From: an uncultured Pseudomonadota bacterium
Lineage (GTDB): Bacteria > Chloroflexota > UBA5177 > JAJPKF01
DNA: 64,000 nt
Reading direction: 5' to 3'
Assembly: GCA_963836045.1 (NCBI GenBank)
Contig: CAWIIC010000004.1
Coordinates: forward strand, 313,726 to 377,725
The translations under genes and the position numbers were made by a program. The notes under the pieces were generated by a model. That model was not told the origin of the DNA, did not search any database, and saw nothing but the letters and a program-made list of their open reading frames with translations. Each line of letters begins with the position of its first letter. The stretch's first letter is position 1. Shown here piece by piece: positions 17,191-49,560 of this stretch.

Positions 17191-17299
17191 ACTTGGAAAC
17201 GCTGTCGTTGACGATTGCCGCGAGCTTCCAGGTCAAGCCGAGTACCGAACTTCGACCGCATTCGTCGTGACAAGGGCCTGAAGGCGGCGATAGCTGACC

Positions 17300-20700: not shown

Positions 20701-20850
20701 CCTGCCCGACCCTCTTTGCTCAATCGAGGACCGCAACGGCATCTGATAGCCCTTATAGTCCCTCAGGCAACTCCGTTGAAGCGGTGCGTAAGATCGTAAA
20801 CACGCTGGGTATGCCGTCTATTCAACCGGGGCAATGAACTCATTTCCGCC

Positions 20851-30108: not shown

Positions 30109-30148
30109 CGATCAGATCCTTTCTTGTGGGACGCTCTGTGCTGATCGG

Positions 30149-31080
30149 TTAACTCCGATCGCGCTTCCGTACGAACTCCTTGAACTCCATCTCCTGTCGG
30201 TCTTCTTCGAGCTTCCGGTACGCTTGGGTGCCGTTGGCGACCGTCGACATCATGTAGTTGTCCTGGATTGCCGCCAGCATTCCCTGCCGCTCGTAGGTCC
30301 GGTTTATCGCCAGCTTGTGAAGCTTCATTGCCTCCCGAGGCATCGCCCCCAGGCGACTCGCCAGCGCCACGGCATGATCGTCCAGTTCTATCTCAGATAC
30401 CACCTCCGTTACGAATCCCATACGCCATGCATCTGAGGCGTCGATCATATCCCCGGTCAGCAGGACCGCCTTCGCCGCCTTCATTCCCACCAGCCACGGC
30501 AGCATGCACGCCCCCGGCCCGGAAGGATGGCGTATCTCCGGGGATCCGAATTTTGCGCTCTCTGCCGCGATGGTGAAGTCGCATAGAAGGGACAGCTCTA
30601 GCGCAGCCTCCCAGGTTGTAGCCCCGCACTGCCGCTACATAGGGCTTGTCGCTCTGCCAGATGCGTAGAAAAACCTTCCAGTCCTCACGGAATCGGTCCA
30701 GCCACACTTCGACCGGCAGTGAGCCTTCCTCTGCCTCTGACTTCAGATCAAAGCCAGCCAAGAAGGCCCTTCCCGCCCCCGTGAAGAATCCACGCAGCTC
30801 ACCGAATCGTCGGCCTCCAGCTCCGAGAGTGCCGCGTCCAGCCCGTCAAGAAAATCTCGATTGATCGCGTTCAGGACCTTGGGTCTGTTGAACGTCACTC
30901 GAGCGACTCCGTCCGCCGGCCCGTCGACTACAATCGCGTCGATCGTGACACCTCCACCGTTTTCTGCGTGGCGTTCCTCGTCGTGTCGCGGTTCATGTCC
31001 CCGCCAGCCCAAGGTTCCTGGCGGTCCGGCGCGCGCACAGTGATCTTCGGCGTTGACCACGATGGCGCCGGCTGGCCCCA
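30149..31080 (-). pseudogene. enoyl-CoA hydratase (crotonase), frameshifted at about 30590 and about 30760 (and possibly near 30950)
   Basis: Three pieces lie in three frames: VTIDAIVVDGPADGVARVTFNRPKVLNAIN..., then GFDLKSEAEEGS...KPYVAAVRGYNLGG, then ELSLLCDFTIAAESAKFGSPEIRHPSGPGACMLPWLVGMKAAKAVLLTG...RKRDRS. Confidence 0.55.
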
Positions 31081-33129
31081 CGACCACTGGATTGAGGTCG
31101 AGAGTCGAAAAATCGCCGCCAAGATCCACCGCCACGAGCGTCCCGCGATGCGCCACCATAGCTAGCGACTCGAGATCCACCAGGCCGCGCACTGCCGGAG
31201 TGCTCAACCACCGTCCGGCCGCCGTTTCTCCGATCAGTCGTAAGATCGCATCCTGAGAAATCGGGCATCTGGCAATGGCCACATCAGACCGGTTCTCTAC
31301 CTCTGGACCACCCCCTCCCACGATGACCATGAGGCCGAATCGTTCGTCCACGATCACCCCGACGTAAAACTCTAGGCCGCCTCCGGCCTGCGCCTGTACC
31401 ATGACCACCCCATCTCGCTCGAGGTCATCATAAGCAGCCAATAATGCGTCTTCGGTCTCCAACCCTAAACGGACGCCCCCAGCTCCTGGTGCGCCGAGTT
31501 CGCTACCTTGACCACGACCGGATAGCCTATCTCGCCCGCGGCGCGGACAGCCTCGATCTGGGAGGTCGCCTGCCGCCAAGATGCCACGGGTATCCCAGCA
31601 CGCTCGAACAGGCGCATCGTTGGATCTGCCGCTATCTGGCTCGACCCGCGAGGCGCCGGCTCCGCAAGCCTTCGCGCGTCGGATGCCCGCTGGAGACCAC
31701 CCACAGCAGCCCGTCCCAATCGTCGACATAATGCCGTCCCGCCGCCACCCACCTGGACCATGCCTCGTTGCTCTGCAGGCTGCACTCCGACCCCACGATG
31801 AGTCGCCCGGCCGCTCGATCCCAAACCGGGCCAACGGCATCCAGCAGGGCCTCCAGTCCCGGCATATCGTTGACGAGAAGCAGCACCGCGTCCGCGCCGT
31901 CATCCTCGACCAGCGCCTGGATGGCGCCTGCCCTCTCTTGCATCGAGCCGTCCGCCGCCTCGAGGTCGAGTGGATTGGAAATCGGCTGGAACAGCGCAAC
32001 GGCATCGCTTCCGTTTGCCGATTCTTCCCGATCCGTCATCAGCGGGACTTCCTTGCGTGAAGATATGGCGGAAGCTGGGTCGCGCCGGTCCTCCCCGTTC
32101 ACGGCGTTGGTCCCTTGCGTTCCGAGGACCGCCGCCGGCTTCCCTACCCTCATACGCGACACCGCCGACGGTCCGGGCAGCTCCAACCCGAGCTCATCAG
32201 CTCTGTCTGCCGCGATAGCGGCCAGCCCGCCCGAAACTGTCACCAGGAACATCCGCCGTCCTGGTGCCCCCAGTGCTGGGAATGCCGCGAGAAGCTCGTG
32301 CGGATCGCTCACCGTCACGACGCCAAGCTCCTTGGCTAGCCGCCCGAACATCCGGCCGTCGCTCGTCAGCGCTTGTGTGTGCGCGCGGGTTGCCCGCTGC
32401 CCAGTGGCGCTGGCGCCGCTCTTCAGCACGACCAGACGTTTACCGCTTGCCCGTAGCGCGTTCGCAGCCATCTCGAAACGCTGGACATCTATGTCCTCCA
32501 TGTACGCGGCCACGACCTGCAGCGGCTCCATGCACGCGATCTCGGTCAGAAAGTCTTCCACCGAGAGCTGGGCCTGGCTCCCCGTGGACACGCACAGTCC
32601 CAAGCCGAGCCCCAGATCCGCAGCCCGTGCATGAAGCACCCCCATCAAGGCGCCGCTCTGACTGACCAGCGCGAACGGGCCCGGCCGGAGTGGGCGTTCC
32701 AGACTGATCGAGCTCGAAAGCGCGGTCGACACATTGGCGTGAATGAGCCCGAGGCAATTCGGACCGAGGAGCGTTACATGGCCCTCATCCGCGATGGACC
32801 GAAGCTCTCTCTCCTGACCCAGCGAATCGCGGGCTAACACGACGGCTGCACTGGACACCGATTTCACCGGCCTCCCGCAGAACGTCGGGCACGGCTCCGC
32901 TCGGAATGGCCAGCACGGCGACGTCGGGCACGACATCGAGTGCGCTGAGAGAGGTGGCACATGGTCCGGACGTCACCGCTCCGGATCGCCGGTTGACCCC
33001 CACCGCTACCCCGCGAAAGTCGCGCCTCAGGTAGCGCCACGCACGCCCCCCATAACTCGTAGCCTCGTCGCTTGCGCCAACCACCGCAACGGCCCGCGGA
33101 TAGAGCAGGGCGTCGAGATGCCGTGCCAC
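31000..33129 (-). pseudogene. ADP-forming acetyl-CoA synthetase paralog (ACS#2), with at least two frameshifts
   Basis: The three domains lie in three frames: CoA-binding N-terminus (AVAVVGASDEATSYGGRAW...) at 32785..33129, the middle domains at 31632..32960, and the ATP-grasp (DPTMRLFERAGIPVASW... / GGVRLGLETEDALLAAYDDL...LDLNPVVV). Confidence 0.5.
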
Positions 33130-35043: not shown

Positions 35044-36204
35044 TTAGTGGCGAGCCGAAATCCGTCGCCACATGCGGCCGGAGTCGAAAGTCACGTAGAT
35101 GTCGTGGCCAATTCGTGGCAGAACGAAGCCAACCCTGGTGGTTACGAAGTCGATCTGTGGCAGGACACCAGGCTGCGGGCCGGACCCGAACGCCGTGTGA
35201 CCGCTCATCACCGACCAGCCGGCGCCGCCATTCGTCGTACGGCGCAGCACGTGCTTAATGAGCACCCAGCTGGTGGTGGAGCTCAGCGCGCCATAGCTGT
35301 ACGGTGGGCCAATGTCGGATACACACCCACCTCCAAAGGCAACTGCATGCTTGTGCTGGCAGCTGATCTTCACCTGAATTGACTTCGAGGCGTGCCAGGT
35401 CGAACCACCATCGCCCGATCGATACAGGACGAAGGCAGAGGGAGACATGAGTGAGACCGGCATGGACAGGCGCGACCCCGTCACCCACACCAATCCGGCA
35501 TCGAAGTAGCTTACCTTGAATCCTGGCGTTTTGACGGCAAACTTAGACCAGGTCCGTCCCCCGTCGTTCGTGCGATACAGTTCCTGTATCTGAGTGGCGG
35601 CGAAGCACATGCCGGTCTTGAATCCAACCTTTGGTCCGGTGAAGGACAGATTGTTCAAGGCACCGTTGCAGCTCCCACTCTTCTGCGTCACCCTCCAACT
35701 GCTGCCACCGTCGGCGGTCCGGAGGATCGTGTACGTAATGCTGCCCGCGCCGGGCTGGCCGTAGAGCAGAAGCCAGCCGTGCAGCGGGTCGGAGAACAGG
35801 AGTTGCGTGGGAGCATTGGCCCACGCCGAATCCGGTATCACCTGCTCGTGCTCCGACCATGACCCACCGGCGTTGGTGGTATGGTAGCTCCGCAGCTTCT
35901 TAGATCCGGCAGACGCGACCACCCAAGCCTGACGGGTTCCCATGGAGGCAAATGTGACCCTGGTGAACCCGGACTGCCCAGGACCCTGGCGGATCTGGAG
36001 GACTGTCTTCCAGACGTGGCCCCCATCTGCCGTTCGGAGAATGCCGTCGGCTCCGACAGCCCAACCTTGCGTCGCGCTCGTCATGACAAGGTGACTCAAC
36101 TGCGGTCCGTTCGACGCAGTCGCCGGTACTCCCAGCGCCGTGCCGACAGATCCAAACATTGTCAGTACCACTACCACAACGATCAACCGCGCCTTCAGTG
36201 CCAT
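35044..36204 (-). CDS. secreted BNR/Asp-box repeat protein (paralog of 7849..9021)
   Basis: Signal peptide MALKARLIVVVVVLTMFGSVGTALG. Six SxDGGxxW motifs (TADGGHVWKTV, TNAGGSWSE, TADGGSSWRV, TNDGGRTWSKF, SGDGGSTWHAS, TTNGGAGWSVM). Confidence 0.7.
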   Translation of the reverse strand: MALKARLIVVVVVLTMFGSVGTALGVPATASNGPQLSHLVMTSATQGWAVGADGILRTADGGHVWKTVLQIRQGPGQSGFTRVTFASMGTRQAWVVASAGSKKLRSYHTTNAGGSWSEHEQVIPDSAWANAPTQLLFSDPLHGWLLLYGQPGAGSITYTILRTADGGSSWRVTQKSGSCNGALNNLSFTGPKVGFKTGMCFAATQIQELYRTNDGGRTWSKFAVKTPGFKVSYFDAGLVWVTGSRLSMPVSLMSPSAFVLYRSGDGGSTWHASKSIQVKISCQHKHAVAFGGGCVSDIGPPYSYGALSSTTSWVLIKHVLRRTTNGGAGWSVMSGHTAFGSGPQPGVLPQIDFVTTRVGFVLPRIGHDIYVTFDSGRMWRRISARH

Positions 36205-36399
36205 GAGCTCACCTCTATCCACAACATAGTTCGAACGAGCCCGCATGTCCAGGACCACGTTCCCTTTCCACGTCGAGTTCTGCTCGTGGCGAGAGGCGTC
36301 TGGAGCAGGAGGACGGCCCAGACCCCTTGCCGGTTCTGTCGATCGTCACTACTACATGGCTTGACGGAGACCTTCCCGCGCCGCAGCTTCCTTCGCCCG

Positions 36400-36590
36400 C
36401 CCGACGCTTGACCCTGCCGCCCGAGTCCGAAGATGGCGTTGGAACCCCTCCACGGCGACCATCGCCGCGACCACTCTAGCCGGTCCTCCCTGGCCGGGGC
36501 GCGGATCCCGGTTGTGGCGCGGTCATCCACGGCTCGCTGGTAGCGGTCGCCTGAAACTGAAAACTGAAAACTGAAAACTGACCCAGCGTC
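36400..36590 (+). repeat. heptad-tailed intergenic element (family 1)
   Basis: ccacggcgaccatcgccgcgaccact...gcggtcgcctgaaactgaaaactgaaaactgaaaactga. Confidence 0.75.
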
Positions 36591-36635
36591 ACGCTGGCTC
36601 CCCAGGCTCAAGGGCTAACTTTACATGCTGGCTCG

Positions 36636-37307
36636 CTATGAACTGAGGTCCCAGAACGGCTCCCTGAGCCCAAGGCTTCGAAAAACAGACTGCGCGTCGG
36701 CGACGGTCCGGCGACGCCAATCGGGCCGCAGCCTATCCGAGTACCATATGTCGGCCAGTTGCCACATGGTCTCCAGAGGAATGGTGGCCCGGACGTCGAT
36801 ACCTACGTTCGCTGCCCACCTGCTCTCGTGCTCCTCCGACCGGAAGAGAAGCATGGTCGTTCAGGTGTAGATGATGTCATCCCACCAGTGGGTAGCCGGA
36901 ACGCCGACGGTCGCGACGCCAGTTCCCGAAACAATCGAGCCGGCGGCGACCTCCAGTGTCTGACTAGCTCCGCAATCGGCACACTCGGCCGCCATGGTTC
37001 CTGTCCCGCCCAGGCAGGCGATGATGCCGAGCCCATCCCACACACAATTGCCGAAGTAGGAGCGGTCGCCCACAGTCACGGAGAACGGAGTCGGCACCGC
37101 TGAGAATGGGTTGGCCATGCGCAAGCGGTCGTCAGTGCCAGGTTCGAGCACGAAAACGTGCTCGCGATGAAGCTCGTGGAACGCGGCTACAACTTCGTCT
37201 TTGCTGACTACGAGTGCCCCGGCCACAGTACTGGCGTCCGGCACCGTCCCACTGTCGCGGGTAGCCCTCATGACCGCCAAGCGAACACTTTCGATAAAAG
37301 GTTCCAT
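36636..37307 (-). CDS. MerB-like organomercurial lyase homolog with an in-frame TGA aligned to catalytic Cys159; candidate selenoprotein, or else a nonsense pseudogene
   Basis: The N-terminal part (36864..37307) aligns to MerB: TVAGALVVSKDEVVAAF matches TLAGILDWPAERVAAVL, GDRSYFGNCVWD matches DDRRLYAWCALD (Cys96/Asp99), and AECADCG matches SHCAATG. TGA is at 36861..36863. Downstream in-frame TTMLLFRSEEHESRW matches CHVHFFASVPTAEDW. Confidence 0.6.
36831..36848 (-). promoter_or_regulatory. candidate bacterial SECIS-like hairpin (CUCUUCC-GGUC-GGAGGAG) 12 nt downstream of the MerB-like TGA
   Basis: 7-bp stem with one G·U pair. The 4-nt GGUC apical loop resembles the SelB-binding loop of E. coli fdhF. 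Spacing from the UGA fits the bacterial SECIS range. Confidence 0.3.
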
Positions 37308-37363
37308 GCGCCGCCTCTCAAGAGAAGATTCGTCGTACTGCTACCATCCGCTTTCCTCGCGGG

Positions 37364-38767
37364 TCACTTGACATCCTCGCACCTCGCCCGGCTCGTGCAC
37401 TGACTGGGTATCCAGTCTGTCGCCCGGTAGTCCTTGGTCACTTTAAAGTCCAGAAACTTCAGCAGGGTGCCACCCGCGGCCGACGAGAATGCGAGATAGA
37501 GGTTGTAGTGTATCGCCGTGAGATTCTCGCCGCAATCGGCCTCGTGGAAAGCAAAGAAGTTCGCGGGGCGACCGCAGAAAGACGCCTCGTATAGCTTCAT
37601 GGTCATGTGCTGAGGACTCTTGTGCGGAACGACGGCCAGATTGGTGGCATACGTGCCGAGCAGCTCACTCAGCTTGTCCGCGTATGGCACCTCTCCAAGC
37701 CACTGCTGGAGATGTGAGCCCACTTCATTGCTGAGGATGGGGTTGCTTATGTAGTGGGTGATGAGATCGGCGAGGCCCGGACTGTGGAAGTCGGTGAGGC
37801 CGTGATCGGCGATGTGGAACTTGCCCTGAAACCACTCGACCAGCGCGAAGCTCGCAATGGGTCCGTACAACGGTACACCCTTGGCCAGCGCATGCAGGGC
37901 GCCCCTGAGAGGCGCGTCGCTGGTCACGGCCGCCACTCGATCGAGCATCCTGTCGATCGCCTTCAGGTGCACCTTGTTGGTGATGGAGGGGACCCGATTG
38001 TCGTGCCATTCGACCAGCGCGCCTTCTTCGTCCGGGGCCAGCGAGATGTTGTGAACCGCGTAGAAGAGGTGGGGCTCAACGGGCAAAGGCTGTTCGCCGT
38101 ATCCATTCGCGGCAGGACAAGAGTTCAGACACTTGCTGGCTTTCGCCGAGATGGTCGTCGTAACCTCGGCTCTGACTCCCGGAGCCCAGTACCGGAGAAA
38201 AGCCATTCCCTGACCATCGGTAGTGGCCTTGGTAATCCCGGTGGTGCACTTGCGGCTTCCAGCCTCAAAGATGGAGCCCACGTCGCACAGGTAGCCACCA
38301 CCCTGAGCTCCGTTGACGACCTCTGCGCCTCCGAGGTGCGTGACGCTTGCCTCAACCTGCGCGCCATCGACCGCCTGCCCTTGGCTATCCTTGACGGTCA
38401 CGAGCACGTTGGTGCAACCGGAGACGCACGTATCCTCGAAGTCGCTCTGGTGAAGTCCCTTCTTCAGGAAGCCCGCCTGAGGCGAATCCCCGGGCAGATA
38501 CGAGGCGCCTGACGTGAGAGGACTGGTCAGCGGCGTTACGGTAACATCCAGACTGCACTCGTCTTGCGCCGCCTGGCCGTGGGGAGTCCCAGAGCGCAGC
38601 GAGTTGCCTGAGGACCCGGTAGTGCATCCGTAGGTGTAGTTGTCTGCTGAAGAAGCTGCGCTTGTGATGCCTCCCGCATTCACCCGCACGTCCGTGAGCA
38701 GCTTGGAGATGCTACTCATCTGAGGCCGCGCGTCGGCAGTCACGGCGGTGATGCGTGTGTCGCTCAC
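37364..38767 (-). CDS. hypothetical Cys-rich protein (467 aa)
   Basis: Long ORF with no recognisable domain. Its last roughly 55 codons are duplicated at 39860..40030. Confidence 0.5.
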   Translation of the reverse strand: MSDTRITAVTADARPQMSSISKLLTDVRVNAGGITSAASSADNYTYGCTTGSSGNSLRSGTPHGQAAQDECSLDVTVTPLTSPLTSGASYLPGDSPQAGFLKKGLHQSDFEDTCVSGCTNVLVTVKDSQGQAVDGAQVEASVTHLGGAEVVNGAQGGGYLCDVGSIFEAGSRKCTTGITKATTDGQGMAFLRYWAPGVRAEVTTTISAKASKCLNSCPAANGYGEQPLPVEPHLFYAVHNISLAPDEEGALVEWHDNRVPSITNKVHLKAIDRMLDRVAAVTSDAPLRGALHALAKGVPLYGPIASFALVEWFQGKFHIADHGLTDFHSPGLADLITHYISNPILSNEVGSHLQQWLGEVPYADKLSELLGTYATNLAVVPHKSPQHMTMKLYEASFCGRPANFFAFHEADCGENLTAIHYNLYLAFSSAAGGTLLKFLDFKVTKDYRATDWIPSQCTSRARCEDVK

Positions 38768-38811
38768 GACGGCGATGTTGCTCGCCGGGAGGGCCGTGCC
38801 TCCTGGCGGCG

Positions 38812-39733
38812 TCAGGGCGACGCCGACGTTGTCACCCGGGGAGCCGAAGCCGGTCCCGCTGATAGTGATTGCCGTTCCTCCCTTCGACGGGCCATCCGTC
38901 GGGCTAACACTGGAAACGGTAGGACCCGGGCGATGTGTATGGCCATGGTGAACCCGGCTCCATCGCTCGTGAGGTTGGAGGTGGCGATGGTGATGACGTT
39001 TGCTCCATCCAGGTTCACCTGAGCAAGGTCGTTCACGTGGGCAAGTGATTCGCCATCGACGGTCACGCTGCTGAACGAAACCTGACTAAACTCGCCCAGG
39101 CCATATCCCGGATCAGGGAATCCGCCAATCTGCGTCGAGACGACTGTCGCCCCCGAACCCGCGAAGGCCTGAGCTTGCCCATCCGTGTGATCGTCGTACG
39201 AAACCGTGGTCCCCGATGGCGTGACGTTGTCCGTGAGCGTGATGACGTCACCGGGGTATGCCCTGCCGAAACCGTAGCGGTTGTACCGAATGCCTGGAAT
39301 CTCGAAGTCAAACCGGTAGATCGGCTGATATGCTCCGCACAGGTTCTGGCTATAGACGGTCGACTGTCCTCCGACCGAGGTCGACTCGAGAATGCCAACG
39401 TCGAGGGAGCCCACGTAGGATGCCTTGCAGGTAAGAGCGGGCTCGACGAAAGTGACGGACACGCTGCTGGAGGTCTCGGTCCTTGTCCACGCGTACCCGG
39501 CCGAGTTGCTGCTCGGCACGATCCCAACCCTGACGTTGGGAAGCTGGTTGGAGCGAATGACCGTTGGGCGCGGGTTTCGGTGCGAAGAAAGCGGTGGCCG
39601 GCCCAGCGTTGGTGGAGGTGGGCAGCCATACCGAGAGGAAGGCAACCAGAAGCGCCGCGATCCAGCCGACGACCCTGAGAGGGAACCCGGCGTGAGTATC
39701 TGCTTCACTTCCTTCGGACAGGTGATGAGTCAT
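38812..39733 (-). CDS. hypothetical membrane-anchored/secreted protein, frameshift near 39570
   Basis: N-terminus MTHHLSEGSEADTHAGFPLRVVGWIAALLVAFLSVWLPTSTNAG in one frame. It continues as ...IRSNQLPNVRVGIVPSSNSAGYAWTRTETSSSVSVTF... in the -1 frame. Confidence 0.4.
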
Positions 39734-40055
39734 CGCGTTTCCTTTCGTGGCATGTCTTCAATGATGCGGTTCGATCGCAGGCGCCGAGGGCGCTCAACTG
39801 CCGCGTGCCCAGAGCGCGGACGCCCGGCCGGTGCTCCGTCCCGGCTGGGCGCCGCGGTCGCGTGACATCCTCGCACTTTGCGCGGCTCGTGCACTGACTG
39901 GGTATCCAGTCTGTCGCCCGGCAGTTCCTGGTCGCTTTGAAGTCCAGATACTTCAGAACGGCGCCACCCGCGGCCGACGAGAATGCGAGATAGAGGTTGT
40001 AGTGCATCGCCCTAAGATCGTGAGCAGGCGTCGGTCTGGTCATGGTTTGACTCAC
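39705..40055 (-). CDS. hypothetical ORF carrying a duplicated 3' fragment of gene 37364..38767
   Basis: HYNLYLAFSSAAGGAVLKYLDFKATRNCRATDWIPSQCTSRAKCEDV is near-identical to the C-terminus of the 467-aa protein. Confidence 0.3.
   Translation of the reverse strand: MSQTMTRPTPAHDLRAMHYNLYLAFSSAAGGAVLKYLDFKATRNCRATDWIPSQCTSRAKCEDVTRPRRPAGTEHRPGVRALGTRQLSALGACDRTASLKTCHERKRDDSSPVRRK
39860..40030. repeat. about 170-bp near-identical duplicate of 37364..37540 (3' end of the 467-aa hypothetical gene)
   Basis: Nucleotide identity is over 85% by eye (gacatcctcgca...ggctcgtgcactgactgggtatccagtctgtcgcccgg...gccgacgagaatgcgagatagaggttgtagtg). Confidence 0.8.
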
Positions 40056-40117
40056 AGTAGATACGCGCGACTTTGAAGAATCCTCGGTTCGGTGCCCATG
40101 TCTTGCAACGAGTTTAG

Positions 40118-40144
40118 ACGGATGTCCACGACTTGTCTATGCAG
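40118..40144. promoter_or_regulatory. perfect 10-bp inverted repeat ATGAACATGA-n7-TCATGTTCAT in an AT-rich intergenic stretch (possible operator)
   Basis: Read directly from the sequence (atgaacatgaattgaaatcatgttcat). AT-rich island in a GC-rich genome, upstream of the 39705..40055 ORF. Confidence 0.3.
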
Positions 40145-40839
40145 AATGAACATGAATTGAAATCATGTTCATTGGGCCGCTCGTCGGCGGGCAACTGAAG
40201 AAAACTCCCACCTAATCCCGCCGAGAAGCGGACGTATTCGACACCCAAGACGCTTTCGGGACGTGACTAGCGGGAGGCGAGCCGACCCATGCTCACGCTA
40301 GAGTCGGCTTCCCTGTGTCTCGGCGCTGCTGTCCTCCGGTGAAATCTCTCCACTCGTCGGTCAAAGAGAGAACCTCCATAACGTGGCCTTCTTGACTTCA
40401 GGCCCGAACACGTTTGCGCTCCCCAACGGCTCGTGCTCGTCCAGGCCTGGCAGCGTCCCTGTCCTCCCGCGTCTCGACCCGATCGTGTATCGCCGCGTGC
40501 GACCTTTTGCACCCCGCAGTCAACCACCACCTCCTAGCAAACCGGCCGTAGGCAACCACCTCTTCCGACCAAACCAAGCGCAGCCAGCTGTTTCAGCCAA
40601 AAAGTAGACCCGCGTTTTTCAGCCTTACCCAAAGTTCGCGGGACTGCTTTTCTAGCACCGGCGCGGCTCGCCAGCCGGGTACAAAAAGTTACAACGACAC
40701 ATCCTTGATATCCTGCCACTCAACTCCGGTGCCCAAAGGCGACCTTCCCGGATACGGTAGTCCAGTCCTCCACCGCCGGTCGCCCCTCAGGAGCCGTCTC
40801 TACCCCCGACTTCCCGACGACGCAGCCAGCCCTAACTTT

Positions 40840-41480
40840 CAGGTGGTTGACTGAGCCCAACCCGCGTCTGTGCGCCGGCCCCCGACGACCGCAGCCGGGC
40901 TTCCCCTTTCCGAAGACTGACCCCAGTCCGCGCCCGTCCGCCAACTCTCGACAACATCCGCTTGGTCCTCCGTGGCTCTGGGCGGTCGACACGTCTGTGC
41001 GCCGCTCCCCCGACAACCCCCAGCCTCCCGTGCCCAGCCGGTCGCGCCCGTGCGCCAACCGCCGACAACGTCTGCCCCACACTCCGCGAACCGGTCGCAG
41101 CGTCTGTGCGCCGGCCTCGCTAACGTCGCCACGGTTTTCCGTCCCCAGGCGGTTGCCGCGTCTCTGCGCTGACCGCCGACAACGTCCGCCCGATATTCCG
41201 TACTCAGGCGGTCACGGCGTCTGCGCCCCCTCCCCCGACAAACCCGCCCAGCCTTCTGCGCCCGGGCGGTTGCCGCGTTCTGCACTGACTGCCGACAACG
41301 TCCGCCCGATATTCCGTGCTCAGGCGGTCACGGCGTCTGCGCGGCCCTCCCCGACAACCCCAGGCCAACCTACCGTGCGCTGGGCGGTTGCCGCGTCTCT
41401 GCGCTGACCGCCGACAACGCCCGCCCGACATTCCGTGCTGAGACGGTCACGGTGTCTGTGCGCCGCCCCTCCCCGACAAC
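40840..41480 (+). repeat. degenerate tandem array, about 5.5 copies of a roughly 120-nt unit made of two roughly 60-nt sub-repeats
   Basis: Sub-repeat A is ggcggtcacggcgtctgcgc..ccccgacaaccc.gcccagcctaccgtgc.cgggc. Sub-repeat B is ggttgccgcgtctctgcgctgaccgccgacaacgtccgcccgatattccgtgctcag. There are no unique spacers. The array merges into a family-1 element. Confidence 0.8.
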
Positions 41481-41562
41481 CCCGCCCAGCCTACCGTGCC
41501 CGGGCGATCGCGGTCGCTGGAACTGAAAACTGACAACTGAAAACTGACAACTCCCTACCGTG
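41480..41562 (+). repeat. heptad-tailed intergenic element (family 1), abutting the stop of the LCP gene
   Basis: ccgggcgatcgcggtcgctggaactgaaaactgacaactgaaaactgacaact. Confidence 0.75.
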
Positions 41563-43609
41563 TCCACACAATCGGTGACGTCGGATCGAGATTCGGCATC
41601 GAGAACATCTCATGTCGAGCTCCCGTTGGCCAGCCGTTGTGCAGCTCGGCCACCCATAGTTGGAAGTCGTTGCCTACGAGCTTGTAGTATGCCAGATGCC
41701 GCCCGTCAGGCGAGTACGACGGCATCGAAACCACCCCGTAGTCCACGGCTTTAGCCGTGGAGGTCTTGAGATGGCCATTGGTGTAGTTTGCTATGAAAAT
41801 CTTGGAGCCCGCATTGCCATTCGTCTGAACATACGCGATCCTGTGCCCCCACGGCTGCCAGGCCGGTTGAGAATCGTTCTGGCTGTAGGGGGAGAGCGGC
41901 GTCGTTTGATCCGTCGTCAGGTTGAGGAGTGTCAGCTGCGACATCACCGACTCGTCATTGCGGTATGAGTAGGCAGTGTAGACGAGCTGTTGTTGGTTGA
42001 CCGGATCGAAGCGCGGATCCGTGTCGCCGCCCGCCCCCGCCGCTGGGTACGTAACCTGGGTCGTGTTTCCGGTCGTCCGATCTTGTGCGTACAGTCCGAG
42101 ATCGATGTTTCCCGTCGGGTTCGTCAGCTTGTACGCGTCGGACGAGTAAACTATCGTGTTTCCGTTCGGTGAGATCTCAGGGTTGAACGCCCAGAGGTTG
42201 TCCTGCACGACTCCGTCAGTCGCCCGGTCGTGGGTAATCTGCCCGTGTTGACCGGTCTGTAGATTTAACGTGAATATGTCCGAAACGACCGGGCTCCAGC
42301 GCCGGGCGTACGTCAGCCAGCGTCCGTTCCCCGTCACCGATACTCCCGAAACGTCATGCGTGTTCGTCAGACGCGCGGTCGACGTGCCGTCGTACGTCCA
42401 AACATTGCCATTGGACACGAAGTAGACATGACCCCGAAAAGGAGCTGGAGCGACGGTTGGAGTTGGCTTCGGTGGTTTGGGTGGGGGTGCCTGAGTGTTC
42501 ACGGCCACTATCTTTGAGAGGCGGGCTCGAACTTCGGCCGCGGTCGGCGGATGATACGTTTTGGGGGATTTCGGTCGGTACGGATGTGACCCCGAGATCG
42601 GAGCAAACATCTTTTTCACTGCTGGGTCGATAGCCGACCAGAATGGCGTAACCGCCGACTCGCCGTCAGCCTCGGTGGCGCCCGTGGAGTACCTCGGCGG
42701 TGAAAGCACCAATTGGTGTATCTCCGATGGGTTGAGCGAGCGGGCAAACGAGACCATCGCCGGCAGCTGCCCCGTACCTACGTCGCTTTTTACGAATCCC
42801 GATAAGTCGTTGACTAAAGGGTTGAGCTGCTGAATACTGGTCAAAGTGTTCATGCTGTCCACCCGCCGGCGTAAGCCGAGTAGCATCTGCTCCTGCCTCG
42901 CGCCTCGGCCGAAGTCGCCGATCAGATCAGCGTGACGTGATCTGACATACTGCAGCGCCGTCTCGCCGTTCATGTACTGTGGTCCCGGCGCGATATATAC
43001 CCGGGTATAGGAGAAGGGATCGGCACCCTTCGTCATATCATTTGGATAGTTGTCGTCGACGATCGGGTGCGAGGCGTCGATGACGACTCCGTGAAACGTC
43101 TTTATGACGTTGACGAAGCCCTGGAGTCCCACCCAGGCATAGTAGTCGATCGGGATCTTGAAGTTGGCTTCGACGGTCGCCTCTGCGAGTGCCACCCCGC
43201 CCGCGAATCCGCCCTTCCCTCCATCCATGCCCGCTGTCCCGTACGACATGGCCGCGTCGATCTTGGCGTACGTGTTCACACCCGGAATCCATACCCAGAA
43301 GTCGCGCGGAATCGACAGCAGTCCGACCCTTTTGTGAACTGGGTCAATGGTCACGACCATCATGGTCTGGCTGAGCTTGGGTATGCCCTTCTTGTCCGTG
43401 TCGGTGCCCAGAAGCAAGATGTTGATCCGCTTGTTGCCCGTCAGCGTCGGTAGCGTGCCTTTGGGGTCGTACTTCGTCTTGATGTGATGGGGCACATAGA
43501 CGCCCACGATCTGCTGAACCCCTCTGTAGAGGCTATACGCCTCTAAGCCGCCTGCGGCGAGAACCAGCAGCACGAGTACGCCGACTGCGATCAGGACCTT
43601 ACGAAGCAT
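41555..43609 (-). CDS. LytR-CpsA-Psr (LCP) family protein with C-terminal TolB-like beta-propeller
   Basis: N-terminal TM anchor and LCP domain (INILLLGTDTD...MMVVTIDPVHKRVGLLSIPRD). C-terminal propeller repeats (SPNGNTIVYSSDA; SPDGRHLAYY). Confidence 0.8.
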   Translation of the reverse strand: MLRKVLIAVGVLVLLVLAAGGLEAYSLYRGVQQIVGVYVPHHIKTKYDPKGTLPTLTGNKRINILLLGTDTDKKGIPKLSQTMMVVTIDPVHKRVGLLSIPRDFWVWIPGVNTYAKIDAAMSYGTAGMDGGKGGFAGGVALAEATVEANFKIPIDYYAWVGLQGFVNVIKTFHGVVIDASHPIVDDNYPNDMTKGADPFSYTRVYIAPGPQYMNGETALQYVRSRHADLIGDFGRGARQEQMLLGLRRRVDSMNTLTSIQQLNPLVNDLSGFVKSDVGTGQLPAMVSFARSLNPSEIHQLVLSPPRYSTGATEADGESAVTPFWSAIDPAVKKMFAPISGSHPYRPKSPKTYHPPTAAEVRARLSKIVAVNTQAPPPKPPKPTPTVAPAPFRGHVYFVSNGNVWTYDGTSTARLTNTHDVSGVSVTGNGRWLTYARRWSPVVSDIFTLNLQTGQHGQITHDRATDGVVQDNLWAFNPEISPNGNTIVYSSDAYKLTNPTGNIDLGLYAQDRTTGNTTQVTYPAAGAGGDTDPRFDPVNQQQLVYTAYSYRNDESVMSQLTLLNLTTDQTTPLSPYSQNDSQPAWQPWGHRIAYVQTNGNAGSKIFIANYTNGHLKTSTAKAVDYGVVSMPSYSPDGRHLAYYKLVGNDFQLWVAELHNGWPTGARHEMFSMPNLDPTSPIVWTR

Positions 43610-43772: not shown

Positions 43773-44480
43773 ATGCAATTCGAGAACACCTTTTCCGTTG
43801 ACGCTCCGATCGACAGGGTCTGGAGCTACCTCCTTGACGTGCAAGCGGTCGCCCCTTGTGTCCCCGGAGCAGAACTGACCGAGATAGTGAGTGACACGGA
43901 GTTCAAGGGCACGGTCAAGGTCAAACTCGGCGCCGTCCAGGTTTCCTACAAAGGAACACTAGCCTTGAAGGAGGTGGACGAAGCTGCGAGGAAGGTCGTG
44001 TTGGTCGCCAGCGGCAACGAAACCCGCGGGTCCGGCAGCGCCTCCGGAACGGTCACCTCGCATCTGGTTGCCGAAAGCGCCGCGCGCACCTCCGTCCGCA
44101 TAGTCTCGGAAGTCAACATCACGGGCCGTGTCGCTCAATTCGGCCGCAACATCATGCAGGACGTCTCCAACCGTCTCATCCGTGAGTTCGCCAAGTGCGT
44201 GGAGAGCAATCTGGTTGCTCGTGAGGCCCAGCTTCCCCCATCCCTCGGGGCGACTGCTGACGGCAACGATGAGTCCCCGGCCACACCTAACGCCCCCGAG
44301 CAGCCTGTCGGCTCAAGTGCGACGCCGCAGGCGGAGGCTGAACTCCGCCCTCCCTCCGCGAACCCCGAATTCGGCGCTCCCTCCGCGAACCCTGATTCTG
44401 CCGCTCGCTCCGCGAACCTGATTCAGGCGCTCGCTCCACGAACCCTCAGTTCGGCGAGCCCTCCACCAACCCTGATTTAG
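43773..44480 (+). CDS. SRPBCC-family CoxG-like protein with C-terminal low-complexity repeat tail
   Basis: MQFENTFSVDAPIDRVWSYLLDVQAVAPCVPGAELTEI is a CoxG family signature. The tail runs into the 27-nt tandem repeat. Confidence 0.7.
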   Translation: MQFENTFSVDAPIDRVWSYLLDVQAVAPCVPGAELTEIVSDTEFKGTVKVKLGAVQVSYKGTLALKEVDEAARKVVLVASGNETRGSGSASGTVTSHLVAESAARTSVRIVSEVNITGRVAQFGRNIMQDVSNRLIREFAKCVESNLVAREAQLPPSLGATADGNDESPATPNAPEQPVGSSATPQAEAELRPPSANPEFGAPSANPDSAARSANLIQALAPRTLSSASPPPTLI

Positions 44481-44600
44481 ACGCTCGCTCCACCGACCCT
44501 GAACTCGGCGGGCCATCCACCAACCCTGGATTCGGCTCTCGCTCTGAATTCGGCGGGTCCTCCACCAACCCTGAATTCGGCGCTAGCTCCGCGAACCGAC
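44340..44600 (+). repeat. tandem 27-nt repeat (about 9 copies, consensus cctgaattcggcgctcgctccgcgaac) at and after the 3' end of the CoxG-like gene
   Basis: It encodes PEFGAPSANP-like nonapeptides in the gene frame. Repeat copies differ by indels, so the frame breaks. Confidence 0.75.
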
Positions 44601-44789
44601 CCGTTTCTTCGTCGACGGACACAGGCTCCGTCCCCAGCCCTGCGACCCCACCCAGTCCGCCCTACTCGGAGGCCGAGCCGCTGAAACTGATGCCCTTGTT
44701 GATGGACATCGCACGCTCCCGCCTGGCCGCTGCCCTACGCGCCCTCGCCAAGCTGGTTGAACCGCCGCCCCAAGAGTAGCCTGAGGTCC

Positions 44790-45100
44790 GAAAGCGCCGT
44801 CGGAATCCACCACGGCGACTGTCGCCACCACTATCGTGGCCCCAGCCCTCCGTTTCCGTGGGGCGGGTCGCGGTCGTGCCTTGTTCTTCCATCGCCCGGG
44901 CGATCGCGGTCGCCTGGAACTGAAACCTAAAACTACTTTTCATGCTTCGTGACGCGTCAAGGGCATGGGAGGCTGTTCGAAAATGCGTCGCAATCCAGCC
45001 ACGGCGACCACCGTCGCGACCACTGTGGCCCGTTCGTCCATCGCCCGTGCGCTTGCGGTCGCTGGAACTGAAAACTGAAAACTGAAAACTGACAACTTAA
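44790..45100 (+). repeat. two tandem copies of the heptad-tailed intergenic element (family 1)
   Basis: Both copies contain catgcttcgtg / gttcgaaaatg / ccaccacggcgac..tcgcc.c.accact / ccatcgcccgggcgatcgcggtcgc(c)tggaactgaaa... modules. The 44662..44943 minus ORF is an artefact. Confidence 0.8.
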
Positions 45101-47550
45101 ATCTTCTTCGTCACTCGCTTATCCAGATAGTCCAACAGAACGTGCTCCCCGAGGTGATACGGACCCGTGAGAAATGCGCGTCCCCGGTTGACCGCCGTCA
45201 TCCGCTCTACAAACGATACGAGTGCCTGGTCGGCGTCGAGCATGAACGTGTTGATGACGATGCCCTCCCGGTAACAGCGTGCAGCCTCCGTGAGCGCGGC
45301 CCGCCGTACAAACCCCGGAGCGGGGTAATTGACGTAAATCCCCCCATTCGGTACGCAACACGCGGTCGGCTCCCCATCGGTGACGAAGAGAATCTGGCGG
45401 TTTCCTCCCCGATGGCGAGCGAGCAGCCGGCGTGACAGCGCCAGAGCCATCTCGTAGTTGGTGCCCTGCACCATGTAGTTCTCCGCCAGTGCCGGCAGAT
45501 CGTCTCTCGTCAGTTCGTAAGCCACGTCGGCGAACCCGATAATCTGCAAGACGTCGTGCGGGAACTGTCCCCGGATCAGGCTGTCGAGCGCGAGAGCGGT
45601 CTTCTTGGCCTCTAAGAACAATCCCCTCAAAAACATCGATCGTGACGTGTCAATCGCCAGCACCGTGGCGTGCCGCACCGCCCGCTCTGTCTCGAAAACG
45701 TCGAAATCTGAAGGCATGAGTCGGAGCGGAGACCGTGCTCCTCGACGCACGCCGTTCATCAGAGTGCTCCTAAGGTCAACGTGAAACGGGTCGCCAAAGT
45801 TGTACGGCTTGCTGTGGGCGGCTAGATCGCCGCCCTGCCCTCTTCGGTGCGTCTGGTGTCCACCCTGACGGTCGTCCTTGAGCTTCTGAAAAATCTCCTT
45901 GAGTGCGCTGTCGCCGAGTTTGCGAATAGCCCGTGGAGTCAATTCCAACCGCTCGCCGTTGCGCTTGAGGTACCCCGCCTCGAGGAGGGACTCGGCCATG
46001 TCCTTCACCGCCTCGATCTGAGCCCCCATTCGCCGTCCGAATAACGAGCTCGGGCTGAGCCCGCTGGTGTTGTTGGCAGCGTCGCTAAGTGCCGACAACG
46101 GGTCTCGCGCCAGCGCTTCCTCCAGCTGCTCCATGGCTTGGAGCCTGCGCATCATGTCCAAAGACTCGCCGAACCCGGGCGCGTCCGACCCTTCGAAGGG
46201 AAAGCCCCCTCCCTGAATCGGGTATCCCATGGCTTCGAGGTTCGCGCCCAGCTGCGCCAGGTCGAGCTGCAACCGGTCGTCCCGCAGCAGCTCGCTCATC
46301 ATGTCAAGCAGCTCTTGTCGAGATTGCGGGTCCATGCTGTCCAGCAGGGCCTGTACCTGTGACGCCTGTTGCTGCAAGTAGCTCAAGAGGTCGTCCAGCG
46401 TCTCGATGTCGGGCGGAAAGTTCTGACCCCATTTGTTCATGAACTCTTGAAAAGCGTGCCGATCACCCTGGCGGCTTGCCTCGATCATCTGATTGAGGTC
46501 CTGGACCATCTGCCGCGTCGCGTCCAGCATCTCGGGCGTTATCTGCCCGACGCCGTCCTTCAAAGATTGGGAATACTGCTGCAGCAATCGACGCTGCAGA
46601 TCGCCGACCAGGCTCTCGAAAGCCTCTCGAGCCTCTGCCGACATAAAGTCATACTCGCGCAGGCTGCGTATCCGTCCCGCGTTGTCCGGCGGCAGTTGAT
46701 CTAGCTGCGATCGCTTACGTTCCAGCATGCGCTCGAGCATGGCTTCGAGCTCGCGTACATCGCCTCCTGAACCGTCTGCACCTCCGTCGCCGGCGTGCTC
46801 ACCGCCCTGCTGCGGCGCCGATCCGCCCGGCTGAGAACCCTGCGGACCTCCGTCGCCGGCACGCTCACTGCCCTGCTGCGGCGCCGATCCGCCCGGCTGA
46901 GAACCCTGTGAACGTCCGTCGCCGGCACGCCCACCGCCCTGCTGCGGCGCCGATCGGCCCGGCTGAGAACCCTGTGAACGTCCGTCGCCGGCACGCTCAC
47001 TGCCCCTCTGCCGCCCCCCGTCGGACTGAGAACCGTCTGCGAAGCCGCCTGCCCTCTGTTGCCCCGCCTGCCCCTGCTCCCGGCCCGGCTCAGAACCCCC
47101 GGGAAGACCAGCCGTCTGTTGCCCTGCTTGCCCCTGCTCCCTGCCCGACTCGCCTTCCCCTGGCTTGGATGGGCTCTCGCCCGTCGAGCTCCCGTCTGAT
47201 CCTTCCGTGCTGCTCCGATTCGTGCCTCGACTCTCGATGCTCTCCCGCTCCATCTGGATGATCTCGTCCAGCTTCTCTCGGATGGCATCGATGGTTCGCG
47301 ACGGATCGTAACGGTCCAGCATGGCTTCGCGCTCGCGCTGCATCTGCTGCAGCAGCCGCCTGAGGCCGTCAAAACGGCGACCGTCAGGCAGCGTAAAGCC
47401 CCGCTGCAGCAGGTTCCGCAAAGCCTTGCGCGGATCTCCCGCGCGAAGCAGGTCGTCGGCTAGCTGGTCGAGTATGTCGTCGGCAGAGAAGTCCGGCACT
47501 TCTTGCGTGCCGTCCCAAGCCGAGTACTGATAGGGCTGTCGTGCCTCCAT
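45097..47550 (-). CDS. VWA domain-containing protein (CoxE-like C-terminal vWA) with long acidic N-terminal region and internal tandem repeats
   Basis: The C-terminus (VLAIDTSRSMF...ILFVTDGEPTA) matches the VWA_CoxE pattern. The central region holds about 4.5 copies of a 60-nt repeat encoding QGSQPGGSAPQQG(G/S)ERAGDGR. Confidence 0.75.
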   Translation of the reverse strand: MEARQPYQYSAWDGTQEVPDFSADDILDQLADDLLRAGDPRKALRNLLQRGFTLPDGRRFDGLRRLLQQMQREREAMLDRYDPSRTIDAIREKLDEIIQMERESIESRGTNRSSTEGSDGSSTGESPSKPGEGESGREQGQAGQQTAGLPGGSEPGREQGQAGQQRAGGFADGSQSDGGRQRGSERAGDGRSQGSQPGRSAPQQGGGRAGDGRSQGSQPGGSAPQQGSERAGDGGPQGSQPGGSAPQQGGEHAGDGGADGSGGDVRELEAMLERMLERKRSQLDQLPPDNAGRIRSLREYDFMSAEAREAFESLVGDLQRRLLQQYSQSLKDGVGQITPEMLDATRQMVQDLNQMIEASRQGDRHAFQEFMNKWGQNFPPDIETLDDLLSYLQQQASQVQALLDSMDPQSRQELLDMMSELLRDDRLQLDLAQLGANLEAMGYPIQGGGFPFEGSDAPGFGESLDMMRRLQAMEQLEEALARDPLSALSDAANNTSGLSPSSLFGRRMGAQIEAVKDMAESLLEAGYLKRNGERLELTPRAIRKLGDSALKEIFQKLKDDRQGGHQTHRRGQGGDLAAHSKPYNFGDPFHVDLRSTLMNGVRRGARSPLRLMPSDFDVFETERAVRHATVLAIDTSRSMFLRGLFLEAKKTALALDSLIRGQFPHDVLQIIGFADVAYELTRDDLPALAENYMVQGTNYEMALALSRRLLARHRGGNRQILFVTDGEPTACCVPNGGIYVNYPAPGFVRRAALTEAARCYREGIVINTFMLDADQALVSFVERMTAVNRGRAFLTGPYHLGEHVLLDYLDKRVTKKI
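46780..47110. repeat. in-frame 60-nt tandem repeat (about 4.5 copies) inside the VWA gene
   Basis: ccgcccggctgagaaccctgcggacctccgtcgccggcacgctcactgccctgctgcggcgccgat repeated with minor variation. Confidence 0.75.
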
Positions 47551-47589: not shown

Positions 47590-47922
47590 GTAGGCGGACT
47601 TCTGCCAAGAAGATGGCCTCGGAATCCACCACGTCCCCCGTGGCCACGACTACTGCAGTCCGGCCCTCGGTGGTCGGGAGGAGAATCGCGGTCGTGGCCC
47701 GTCTTTAATGGCCCGAGCGGTCGCGGTCGCCTGCAGCTGACGCATGACAACTAAGAGCTATTTTTCCATGCTGCGCGGTAGCCCCGCGCATGGGTGGCTA
47801 GTGGGAAAATAGCACCGGATTCCGCACCGCGATCCCCGCAGCGACACTGGCCCGGTCTTCCACCGCTCGCGCGCTAGCGGTCGCTGGAACTGAAAACTGA
47901 CAACTGAAAACTGACAACTCCG
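47590..47922 (+). repeat. two tandem copies of the heptad-tailed element (the first has a degenerate tail)
   Basis: ccaccacgtcccccgtggccacgactact...gcggtcgcggtcgcctgcagctgacgcatgacaact and tttttccatgctgcgcgg...gcggtcgctggaactgaaaactgacaactgaaaactgacaact. Confidence 0.75.
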
Positions 47923-48425: not shown

Positions 48426-49364
48426 AAAGTAATCGTGACGGGTGCTACCGGTTTTGTCGGTTCCGCCCTCGTGAGGAGGCTGCTGTCGCGGGGCGATCGC
48501 GTCGTCGCCGTCTCCCGCAATCCCGACAAGGCAGCAGTAGTGCTTGGGAACGATGTAACGGCCGTCCCCTGGTCCCCCCCGGCTTCGAACGCCGCCCTGG
48601 TAGACGAGGTCAACGGCGCGGACGCTATCGTCAACCTCGCCGGTGAGCCTCTGGCCGATAAACGCTGGACCCCGGAGGAGAAGGATCGCATCCTGCGCAG
48701 CCGCGTTGATGCCGGCCGTTCCATTCTTGAGGCCGTGCGTATGGCGACTTCGCGGCCCGGCGTCCTGATCAACGCCTCCGCGATCGGGTATTACGGCGAC
48801 CGGGGCGACGAGCGCTTGGTCGAGTCGAGTCCTCCGGGACATGACTTCCTCGCTGATGTGGTTCGGCAATGGGAGGCTTCAGTCGGGCCCGTAATCGAGT
48901 TGGGAGTGCGCCTCGTCCTGCTTCGCACCGGATTTCCGGTTCTCGGCTCGTCCGGCGGCGCACTGCCCCGGTTTGCGTTGCCGTTCAGATTCTTTGGCGG
49001 CGGCGTGCTCGGCCCTCGCGACCAGTGGGTTTCCTGGATCCACATCGAAGACGAGGTCGACCTCATACTCTTCGCCCTGGACTCGGACGTCGTATCCGGC
49101 CCCGTCAACGCCACCGCGCCGAACCCCGTTACTATGGCAGAGTTCTCCAACGGCATCGGGCACGCGCTCAAACGCCCTGTCTGGGTACCGGCGGTCCCAA
49201 CGTTCCTGCGGTTAGTGTTGGGCGAGAGGGCCGAGCCTCTGTTCACGAGTCAGCGTGTCTTCCCCGATCGCGCGCTAGGCCTAGGATTCCAATTCAAATA
49301 CGTGAACGCCAACCAAGCCCTGGACTCTCTCCTAGGAAACCCCCATCCCCAGCCCTCCCGGTAA
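48426..49364 (+). CDS. TIGR01777/DUF1731 family NAD-dependent epimerase/dehydratase (YfcH-like)
   Basis: MKVIVTGATGFVGSALVRRLL Rossmann motif and a C-terminal DUF1731-like region. Confidence 0.75.
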   Translation, partial: KVIVTGATGFVGSALVRRLLSRGDRVVAVSRNPDKAAVVLGNDVTAVPWSPPASNAALVDEVNGADAIVNLAGEPLADKRWTPEEKDRILRSRVDAGRSILEAVRMATSRPGVLINASAIGYYGDRGDERLVESSPPGHDFLADVVRQWEASVGPVIELGVRLVLLRTGFPVLGSSGGALPRFALPFRFFGGGVLGPRDQWVSWIHIEDEVDLILFALDSDVVSGPVNATAPNPVTMAEFSNGIGHALKRPVWVPAVPTFLRLVLGERAEPLFTSQRVFPDRALGLGFQFKYVNANQALDSLLGNPHPQPSR

Positions 49365-49369
49365 TCGCC

Positions 49370-49560
49370 TGCCTACCACCGGACAGCTTACCGTCTACAG
49401 TCCCTCCCGGTAATCTCAGTCTTAACATCCGACAGCTTACCGTCTACAGTCCGTCGTCAACCGGTCTACCGTCGACCGACTTCCCCGGTGGTCTATTTTC
49501 ACTCAATCGTCAATCAACCACTGAAAAACTGACAACTGATAACTGACAACTGAAAACTTA
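49370..49560 (+). repeat. composite heptad block: TACCGTC-type units followed by AACTGAC/AACTGAA units
   Basis: cagcttaccgtctacagtcc...cagcttaccgtctacagtccgtcgtcaaccggtctaccgtcgacc...ccactgaaaaactgacaactgataactgacaactgaaaactta. Confidence 0.7.

Follow-up and report, generated by a model that had tools for sequence, protein, structure and literature searches.

What is the repetitive DNA that lies immediately 3' of the gene for an LCP (LytR-CpsA-Psr) protein in the genome of an uncultured Chloroflexota bacterium, and how did it arise? The locus belongs to a 64,000-nt stretch of that genome, here called the window, to which all positions refer. The LCP gene, whose product ends in a C-terminal beta-propeller, is the upstream neighbour of the repeats on the minus strand. 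An earlier note, made from the sequence of the window, had read the repeats as a minisatellite-like tandem array derived from a dispersed repeat termed family 1, and not as clustered regularly interspaced short palindromic repeats (CRISPR). We find that the array is genuine and non-coding, and that its number of units differs between closely related assemblies. We regard it, with a probability of about three in four, as a hypervariable minisatellite (variable-number tandem repeat, VNTR) without dedicated function. Comparison of alleles supports the view that the array arose when the part of a family-1-type element just upstream of the element's tail was amplified locally in tandem.

A tandem array of two unit types

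The array spans about 40786 to 41503 and, dissected by eye, comprises 11–12 head-to-tail direct units of 53–71 nt each (Table 1). Unit starts were cut by eye at 40847, 40918, 40981, 41040, 41093, 41149, 41208, 41266, 41324, 41384 and 41444 for u01–u11; the very degenerate u00 (40786–40846) was recognised only through its alignment with the single unit of a related assembly, L129, described below. Tandem Repeats Finder, suggested as a check in the earlier note, returned a period of 116 nt at 41139–41506 (3.1 copies, 85% matches, score 542) and a period of 59 nt at 41137–41436 (5.1 copies, score 246). A repeat search found a 44-nt family of six copies, with spacings of 66, 114, 114, 116 and 119 nt, that extends back to 40863. 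An nhmmer profile built from u03–u11 recovers 11 array units. The nine on which it was built score E 1e-9 to 1e-16, u01 and u02 no better than 1e-3 and 5e-3. In the 64 kb and in the related loci the profile matches this locus alone.

The units fall into the two sub-repeats, A and B, that had been described at the outset. A-type units (u07, u09, u11 and, more loosely, u03) are 72–83% identical to one another, those of the last three dimers 81–83%, and B-type units (u06, u08 and u10) share 88–93% identity. Since u04 and u05 are both B-like, clean alternation of A and B is confined to the last three dimers (41149–41503). The initial description of about 5.5 higher-order repeats overstates how regular the array is.

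Units become more alike towards the 3' end of the array, where the heptads lie. Identities between unit i and unit i+2 are, from 5' to 3', 64, 59, 66, 67, 63, 93, 81, 88 and 83%, a climb from 59–67% to 81–93%. The gradient is real when judged against random 58-mers drawn from the window, which are 50 ± 4% identical. Units u00–u02 barely rise above this background; u01 and u02 are 49–64% identical to other units. These data confirm the array and the polarity that had been attributed to it.

At its 3' end the array runs without interruption into the tail of a family-1 element, as had also been proposed: u11 passes directly into GCGATCGCGGTCGCTGGA, which is followed by heptads that finish 2 nt short of the LCP stop codon (41555–41557, minus strand). 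A promoter-like match, CTGACA-17 nt-CACAAT (9/12, 41544–41572, plus strand), begins in the last heptad and points antisense into the 3' end of the LCP gene. It is the sole promoter-like site near the array, and the heptads provide its TTGACA-like hexamers.

Unit number varies between related assemblies

Related assemblies were retrieved by exact-protein look-ups, and L129 was reached through the cluster member P0124. The closest, L001 (ENA ERZ25039590 contig_19768, 349 kb), has flanks 98–99% identical to those of the window; L129 (JGI 3300050019 Ga0494709_0001658) is 91–94% identical over genes (~92%). In all three the locus occupies one site, straight after the LCP stop codon, and the number of units is 1 in L129, 8 in L001 and 11–12 in the window. 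Heptads number 11, 8 and 4, respectively, so that L001 has four more than the window. The length polymorphism that the earlier note had asked about is therefore present between assemblies, as differences in whole units.

The window and L001 differ in register with the units. L001 lacks 167 nt corresponding to 40988–41154 of the window, that is, u03–u05. Orthologous dimers of the two assemblies are only 80–93% identical, against 98–99% in the flanks, and the L001 B units l5 and l7 share 97% identity with each other and with window unit u08 (w08). The near-identical B units, together with the diverged dimers, point to rapid turnover and conversion within the array.

In L129 the LCP stop codon is followed by 11 heptads and the tail, and then by just one unit, of 57 nt. 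The unit and the first part of the tail have the sequence CGCCGTCTGTACCGGGACCCCCAACGACCGCAGCTCGCTCTACTGTGCCCGGGC followed directly by GGTCGCGGTCGCTGGA; beyond them comes the orthologue of window 40804–40553. The middle of this unit (CGACGACCGCAGC) resembles u00/u01, and its 3' end (CTAC(C/T)GTGCCCGGGC) resembles u11.

More distant relatives have LCP proteins 82% (L004, L005), 75% (L003) and 73% (L006) identical to that of the window. None of these four loci holds an array, a family-1 element or heptads. L004 retains the synteny (epimerase, response regulator, Mb0984-like, CoxG, LCP) up to the LCP stop codon, and its intergenic gaps measure 12–52 nt where those of the window exceed 300 nt. On these comparisons, the array, family 1 and the heptads are lineage-specific.

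Relation of the array to family-1 elements

A family-1 element consists of a body of ~80 nt, a GC-rich palindromic tail (TTCCATCGCCCGGGCG..GCGGTCGCTGGA) and AACTGAM heptads. We built a profile from seven copies, excluding the copy at the array locus, and counted matches at E <0.01. All matches in the window (11/11) lie on the plus strand; the GC skew of the window is uniformly negative. The one conserved hairpin of the elements (TCCA...TGGA) is weak, and Rfam has no match to them.

Heptad tracts of the family lie close to gene ends. Four of them end 0–8 nt from minus-strand stop codons, those of the genes for the LCP protein, the Mb0984-like protein, the response regulator and an alcohol dehydrogenase, and two further tracts lie 62–76 nt upstream of plus-strand start codons. 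Heptad number is also one higher in the window than in L001 at 36554 and at 49527, and the run after the Mb0984-like gene has four copies in the window and L001 and five in L129. With such differences between strains at several loci, the heptads behave as a hypermutable microsatellite. Variation extends to the whole element (~180 nt), which is present twice in tandem at 52744–53066 in the window and once in L001 (744–881).

Within the array, the family-1 profile has a sole match, at 41494–41521 (E 0.003). By blastn, 41485/41498–41552 is 84–93% identical to 52995–53063, 47865–47921, 45043–45097 and 7647–7702. The shared CCCGGGCGGTTGC is an example of the resemblance between unit and family 1 at the junction of tail and unit. 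The informative allele for the units themselves is that of L129, whose single element matches model positions 61–110 of the profile (49 nt) at E 4e-4 when L129 is searched alone and 2e-3 when all relatives are searched. Besides the tail, this match takes in the two-thirds of the unit nearest its 3' end. This profile match, taken together with the position of the array, supports the proposal that the array formed by local tandem amplification of the part of a family-1-type element just upstream of its tail, as the earlier note had suggested from the window; the evidence that bears the proposal out is comparative and comes from the one-unit allele.

How the array may have grown

These results suggest the following history. 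The starting points are direct observations: the repeat structure, its non-coding and unstructured nature, the in-register differences in copy number and the homology of the L129 unit to family 1. In the ancestral state a single family-1-type intergenic element, with body, GC-rich palindromic tail and AACTGAM heptads, would have stood immediately 3' of the LCP stop codon. A piece of ~57 nt just upstream of the tail, from ...CGTCTGT... to ...CCCGGGCGGTCGC, would then have been duplicated head to tail. The unit boundary coincides with a TCGC/ATCGC microhomology (upstream, ...AATCGC is followed by CGTCTGT...; at the tail, ...G(A/G)TCGC is followed by GGTCGC), which the founding duplication may have used. 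From two copies on, replication slippage and unequal recombination could have gained and lost units in register. Old units far from the LCP gene would have decayed, and the A+B dimer of 116–119 nt would have been re-amplified most recently at the tail-proximal end; decay at one end and recent re-amplification at the other would account for the identity gradient. The heptad tract would expand and contract independently, by slippage.

Several points weigh against this account. L129, with its single unit, may preserve the ancestral state or be the product of a collapse by recombination between first and last units, and the likeness of this unit to both ends of the array fits either. L129 also lacks a 5.3-kb segment (window 35224–40553 against L129 5219–5228) whose right end lies 240 nt from the array and which contains the TIG-domain gene, MerB, two small open reading frames (ORFs), a family-1 element and most of a BNR-repeat gene. 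The absence is probably a deletion, given CCGGC-type microhomology at the junction and the truncated BNR gene, and a microhomology-bounded deletion next door makes a collapse of the array plausible. The link to family 1 is modest, consisting of one 49-nt profile match (E about 1e-3) and of position. In the window, significant similarity to family 1 is confined to the last 28–68 nt (41485/41494–41552) and does not reach the unit bodies; the family-1 consensus aligns locally to u09–u11 no better than to shuffled sequences (z 0.7). Within the window, the resemblance that had been noted between a segment of the array and the family-1 core is consequently limited to the tail and its junction with the unit. 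All sequences compared are metagenome assemblies, in which errors of assembly or of consensus in repeats could affect exact unit counts and part of the high divergence within the array. Finally, that the array is neutral, with no dedicated function, argues from absence of evidence.

Alternative explanations

We weighed five other explanations against that of a functionless minisatellite. The one that survives best, though we think it unlikely, sees in the array a functional cis-acting element, placed between the LCP gene and the minus-strand genes downstream. It could provide a rut-like, Rho-loading plus-strand RNA that halts antisense or convergent transcription, minus-strand G-quadruplexes that pause polymerases, or motifs that titrate a protein. 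The C-rich plus strand of the array (45% C and 27% G at 41149–41503) would suit the first of these, as would its folding: the whole-array fold has a z of +2.1 on the plus strand, weaker than every shuffle, and −0.9 on the minus strand. Of the ten canonical G-quadruplex motifs of the window, three fall within A-type units on the minus strand, which is the sense strand for LCP (41007–41035, 41226–41249 and 41466–41487), and no intrinsic terminator is predicted between LCP and the next gene. Set against this, the close relative L129 has one unit, relatives at 73–82% LCP identity have none, and unit number and sequence vary freely. Conserved unit columns are evenly spread and not gathered into motifs or a repeat block (runs test, P 0.8). 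Upstream of the array there is no plus-strand gene or promoter, and its composition is simply inherited from the unit that was amplified.

Tandem small-RNA genes, one per unit or one per A+B dimer, would recall the arrays of NsiR1 upstream of hetF in Anabaena and of CcsR1–4 ('cuckoo' RNAs) in Rhodobacter, which likewise consist of tandem, non-coding, intergenic units of ~60 nt. The A units hold an anti-Shine-Dalgarno-like tract, CCCUCCCC, and by eye the B units contain a weak promoter match, CTGACC-17 nt-GATATT (8/12). Unlike the NsiR1 and CcsR arrays, however, this one has no promoter or terminator for each unit, a scan for both finding nothing within the array at its threshold. Nor is there a conserved fold: RNAalifold on 15 units from two strains gave −1.0 kcal/mol for the plus and −1.6 kcal/mol for the minus strand, with zero compensatory pairs. 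Rfam searches of the whole window found no family at the gathering threshold or at E 0.1, and a search of 39900–41700 at E 1 gave just two chance-level Pyrobac-1 matches; the highest sub-threshold score in Rfam was 22 bits against a cut-off of 40. Together with the loss or absence of the array in L129, these results make small-RNA genes very improbable.

We give equally little weight to the idea that the array is, wholly or in part, an artefact of assembly, mis-joined or mis-counted. It is true that the three alleles all come from metagenome assemblies, that the window contains frameshifted genes (the split TIG-domain gene and the gene fragments at 16.5–20.85 kb) and that a short-read contig, L130, breaks within the heptads. 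But the window and L001, which are independent assemblies, agree in architecture, flanks and A/B order, where they differ they do so in register with the units, and inter-assembly indels cluster in intergenic DNA and are not scattered.

A repetitive low-complexity protein is less probable again. Although both strands have ORFs of 120–186 aa across the array (186 aa on the plus strand at 40847–41407, 65–148 aa on the minus strand), none has a Pfam match, and the other frames contain stops. Periods of 53–63 and 116–119 nt are not multiples of 3 and put successive units in different frames. Between strains the frames are broken by the 167-nt gap and by several 1-nt indels in L001, and the array is absent in L129. 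The array is non-coding, and the long minus-strand ORFs are artefacts of the repeats, as they had been labelled at first.

A degenerate or orphan CRISPR has next to nothing in its favour: the CRISPR-like period of ~58–60 nt, the direct repeats and the one-ended identity gradient beside an AT-richer tract, which superficially recalls the polarity of a leader, are outweighed by would-be spacers that recur in A/B alternation (B 88–93%, A 72–83% identical), a 'repeat' part conserved no better than the rest and free of a repeat hairpin, and a one-unit allele that is a family-1 element. The ~50 ORFs and gene calls with a Pfam annotation across the 64 kb and the related loci all belong to housekeeping families, with no cas protein among them. 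These observations support the original call of a minisatellite-like locus and not CRISPR, a call to which the variation in copy number between related assemblies adds. The array is also unlike REP sequences (repetitive extragenic palindromes) and bacterial interspersed mosaic elements, whose units are imperfect palindromes of ~35–40 nt that often alternate in orientation and are accompanied by a RAYT transposase in the genome. Its own units are direct and not palindromic, and no transposase is found in the window.

Comparison with known repeats

Mycobacterial interspersed repetitive units (MIRU), reportedly described by Supply and colleagues in 1997/2000, form MIRU-VNTR loci of intergenic ~50–60-nt units that belong to a dispersed family and vary between strains by whole units, presumably through slippage or unequal recombination. 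Strictly defined, MIRU are dispersed at many intercistronic loci, are oriented with the operon and contain short ORFs overlapping the stop and start codons on either side. The array resembles MIRU-VNTR loci in its head-to-tail intergenic units, its probable origin in a dispersed repeat and its whole-unit copy-number differences between close strains. It departs from the strict definition in that the 58-nt unit occurs at one locus only (in the 64 kb and the related loci) and in having no ORF that couples the flanking genes. Its units are, moreover, far more diverged and arranged in an A/B higher-order structure, its parent element bears a heptad microsatellite, and its host is an uncultured member of the Chloroflexota. 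The general use of MIRU-VNTR loci is treated in PMC3182896. With direct repeats in the range of ~10–100 nt, whole-unit copy-number variation at one locus and no coding capacity, the array looks like an ordinary bacterial minisatellite.

The heptads have parallels of their own. Cyanobacterial STRR heptamers are related repeats. Intergenic direct repeats of the heptamer TAACTGA, situated near start or stop codons, have been described in Beggiatoaceae, Cyanobacteria and Bacteroidetes (MacGregor 2015, PMC4679880). There, some cases lie immediately downstream of stop codons in reverse orientation, and sets of heptamers occur between stop codons, all in one chromosomal orientation; in the BOGUAY genome the variants AAACTGA and CAACTGA rarely form direct repeats (PMC4679880). 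The heptad tail shares with the TAACTGA repeats an intergenic position, direct NAACTGA-type heptamers and stop codons in all three forward frames. The heptads here (A/CAACTGA, 4–11 copies, 2 nt from the stop codon) have the ACTGA core and the placement of those repeats, but their sequence is not TAACTGA. They also differ from the repeats of PMC4679880 in that they cap a GC-rich palindromic tail (GCGGTCGCTGGA) and a body, and an attached 58-nt array is not described in that paper.

Runs of (ACTGAMA)n with at least four heptads are present in >120 unrelated JGI metagenome contigs of 32–68% GC (L008–L127 were fetched). The variants ACTGACC, ACTGCCA, ACTGAGA and ACTGATA are seen too, and the runs often form inverted pairs, (TTTCAGT)n ... 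(ACTGAAA)n, round a short spacer. None of the 120 fetched loci carries a family-1 tail or a heptad-capped long array. The family-1 tail has no match among the JGI metagenome contigs, which is weak evidence as the collection is incomplete (an exact match is present in L129, itself a JGI contig, which was reached by another route). The runs seem to belong to a widespread class of heptamer repeats, that of the STRR/TAACTGA type.

Genomic context

Table 1. Coordinates of the array, its flanks and the family-1 elements of the window
Feature	Position	Strand	Description or basis
LCP (LytR-CpsA-Psr) gene	41555..43609	-	Pfam PF03816 E 1e-33, PD40; C-terminal beta-propeller
Heptad microsatellite AACTGAA/AACTGAC (AACTGAM) x 4.6	41521..41552	+	Tandem Repeats Finder; alignments with L001 and L129
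Family-1 tail	41485..41520	+	End of last A unit plus GCGATCGCGGTCGCTGGA
B+A dimers u06–u11	41149..41503	none	117, 118 and 120 nt; probably young, most homogeneous part
u03 (A-like), u04 and u05 (B-like)	40981..41148	none	59, 53 and 56 nt; nhmmer E 9e-10 to 6e-9
u00, u01, u02	40786..40980	none	61, 71 and 63 nt; degenerate, probably oldest units; fuzzy 5' edge of array
Unique non-coding spacer	40056..40785	none	Between array and next minus-strand gene region; ORFs without Pfam match
Family-1 paired copies (tandem doublets)	7465-7670, 44786-45066, 47609-47888, 52744-53032	+	Profile
Family-1 single copy	36419-36554	+	Profile
Family-1 body-only copy	3979-4036	+	Profile
Family-1 elements including heptads	7465-7713, 36419-36576, 41485-41552, 44786-45094, 47609-47916, 49520-49558, 52744-53066	+	

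Homologues of the LCP protein are Chloroflexota proteins from metagenome-assembled genomes and carry the name 'LCP family protein [Chloroflexota bacterium]'. A query of GTDB species representatives with the LCP protein returned no close relative, only an irrelevant match in Blautia. Beyond the array lies the unique spacer, which is conserved at 98–99% in L001 and ~80% in L129 and holds a 32-nt repeat in two copies at 40514–40575.

The genes of the window are those of an ordinary chromosome: a radical-SAM/DUF512 protein, subunits of a CO-dehydrogenase-type molybdoenzyme, a thiolase, NDP-forming acyl-CoA synthetases, ABC transporters, RmlD and epimerases, PspA, DivIVA and CTP synthase. No transposase or integrase is among the annotated genes of the 64 kb and no tRNA was found in them; blastn against the PLSDB plasmids gave no match.

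The TIG-domain gene next to the spacer (37364–40055, minus strand) is a single gene of 790 aa in L001, whereas in the window 1-nt indels break it up into three ORFs, of 467, 298 and 116 aa. A direct repeat of 163 nt, 89.6% identical, places a copy of the 3' end of this gene (37362–37524) just upstream of its start (39856–40018). A contig with a TIG-domain homologue, L128, shows no array, only 200 nt upstream of the gene being present. Elsewhere, the interval 16500–20850 has no ORF of at least 150 aa and contains short plus-strand ORFs with fragments of ECH, CoA_binding_2, Succ_CoA_lig, ATP-grasp_5 and NMT1; it has the look of an inverted paralogue, full of frameshifts, of the cluster that is intact at 25233–32005, either a pseudogenised operon or the result of local assembly errors.

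Tandem repeats are also found at other places in the window (1198–1333, 4911–4956, 44338–44597, 46769–47005 and 49353–49452). They include a second heptad family, TACCGTC, with 13-, 21- and 26-nt derivatives, and a 49-nt repeat in two copies. Two genes hold repeats of their own: a 27-nt repeat in ten copies in the CoxG-like gene, whose product has 335 aa in L001 and 235 aa in the window, and a 66-nt repeat in 3.6 copies within the Mb0984-like gene.

Implications

The array alone opens no new mechanism. The more interesting question, and a separate finding, is that of the co-oriented family-1 elements that abut stop codons. Family 1 may be an undescribed non-autonomous mobile element of this Chloroflexota lineage that inserts in a single orientation 0–8 nt after stop codons and is prone to self-amplification. 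We hold this to be a speculative and rather doubtful idea; compatible with it are the 11 of 11 co-oriented matches, on a strand of uniformly negative GC skew, the four heptad tracts that abut minus-strand stop codons, the absence of the elements at 73–82% LCP identity and the variation in steps of 7, 58 and 180 nt. If it were true, the single chromosomal orientation could mean replication-coupled, single-strand transposition. Self-amplification would then be polar and in register, and the 58-nt array would be its runaway product, marking where the element 'grows'.

As a minisatellite, the locus has uses and meanings of its own. It is a likely site of breaks or miscounts by metagenome assemblers. 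As a compound VNTR, in which a 7-nt microsatellite stands beside a 58-nt minisatellite, it could serve as a strain-typing marker for this uncultured Chloroflexota population. The heptads may extend NAACTGA-type repeats to the Chloroflexota and, if the array did arise from a family-1-type element, the locus shows by example how an intergenic repeat of a dispersed family can give rise to a minisatellite.

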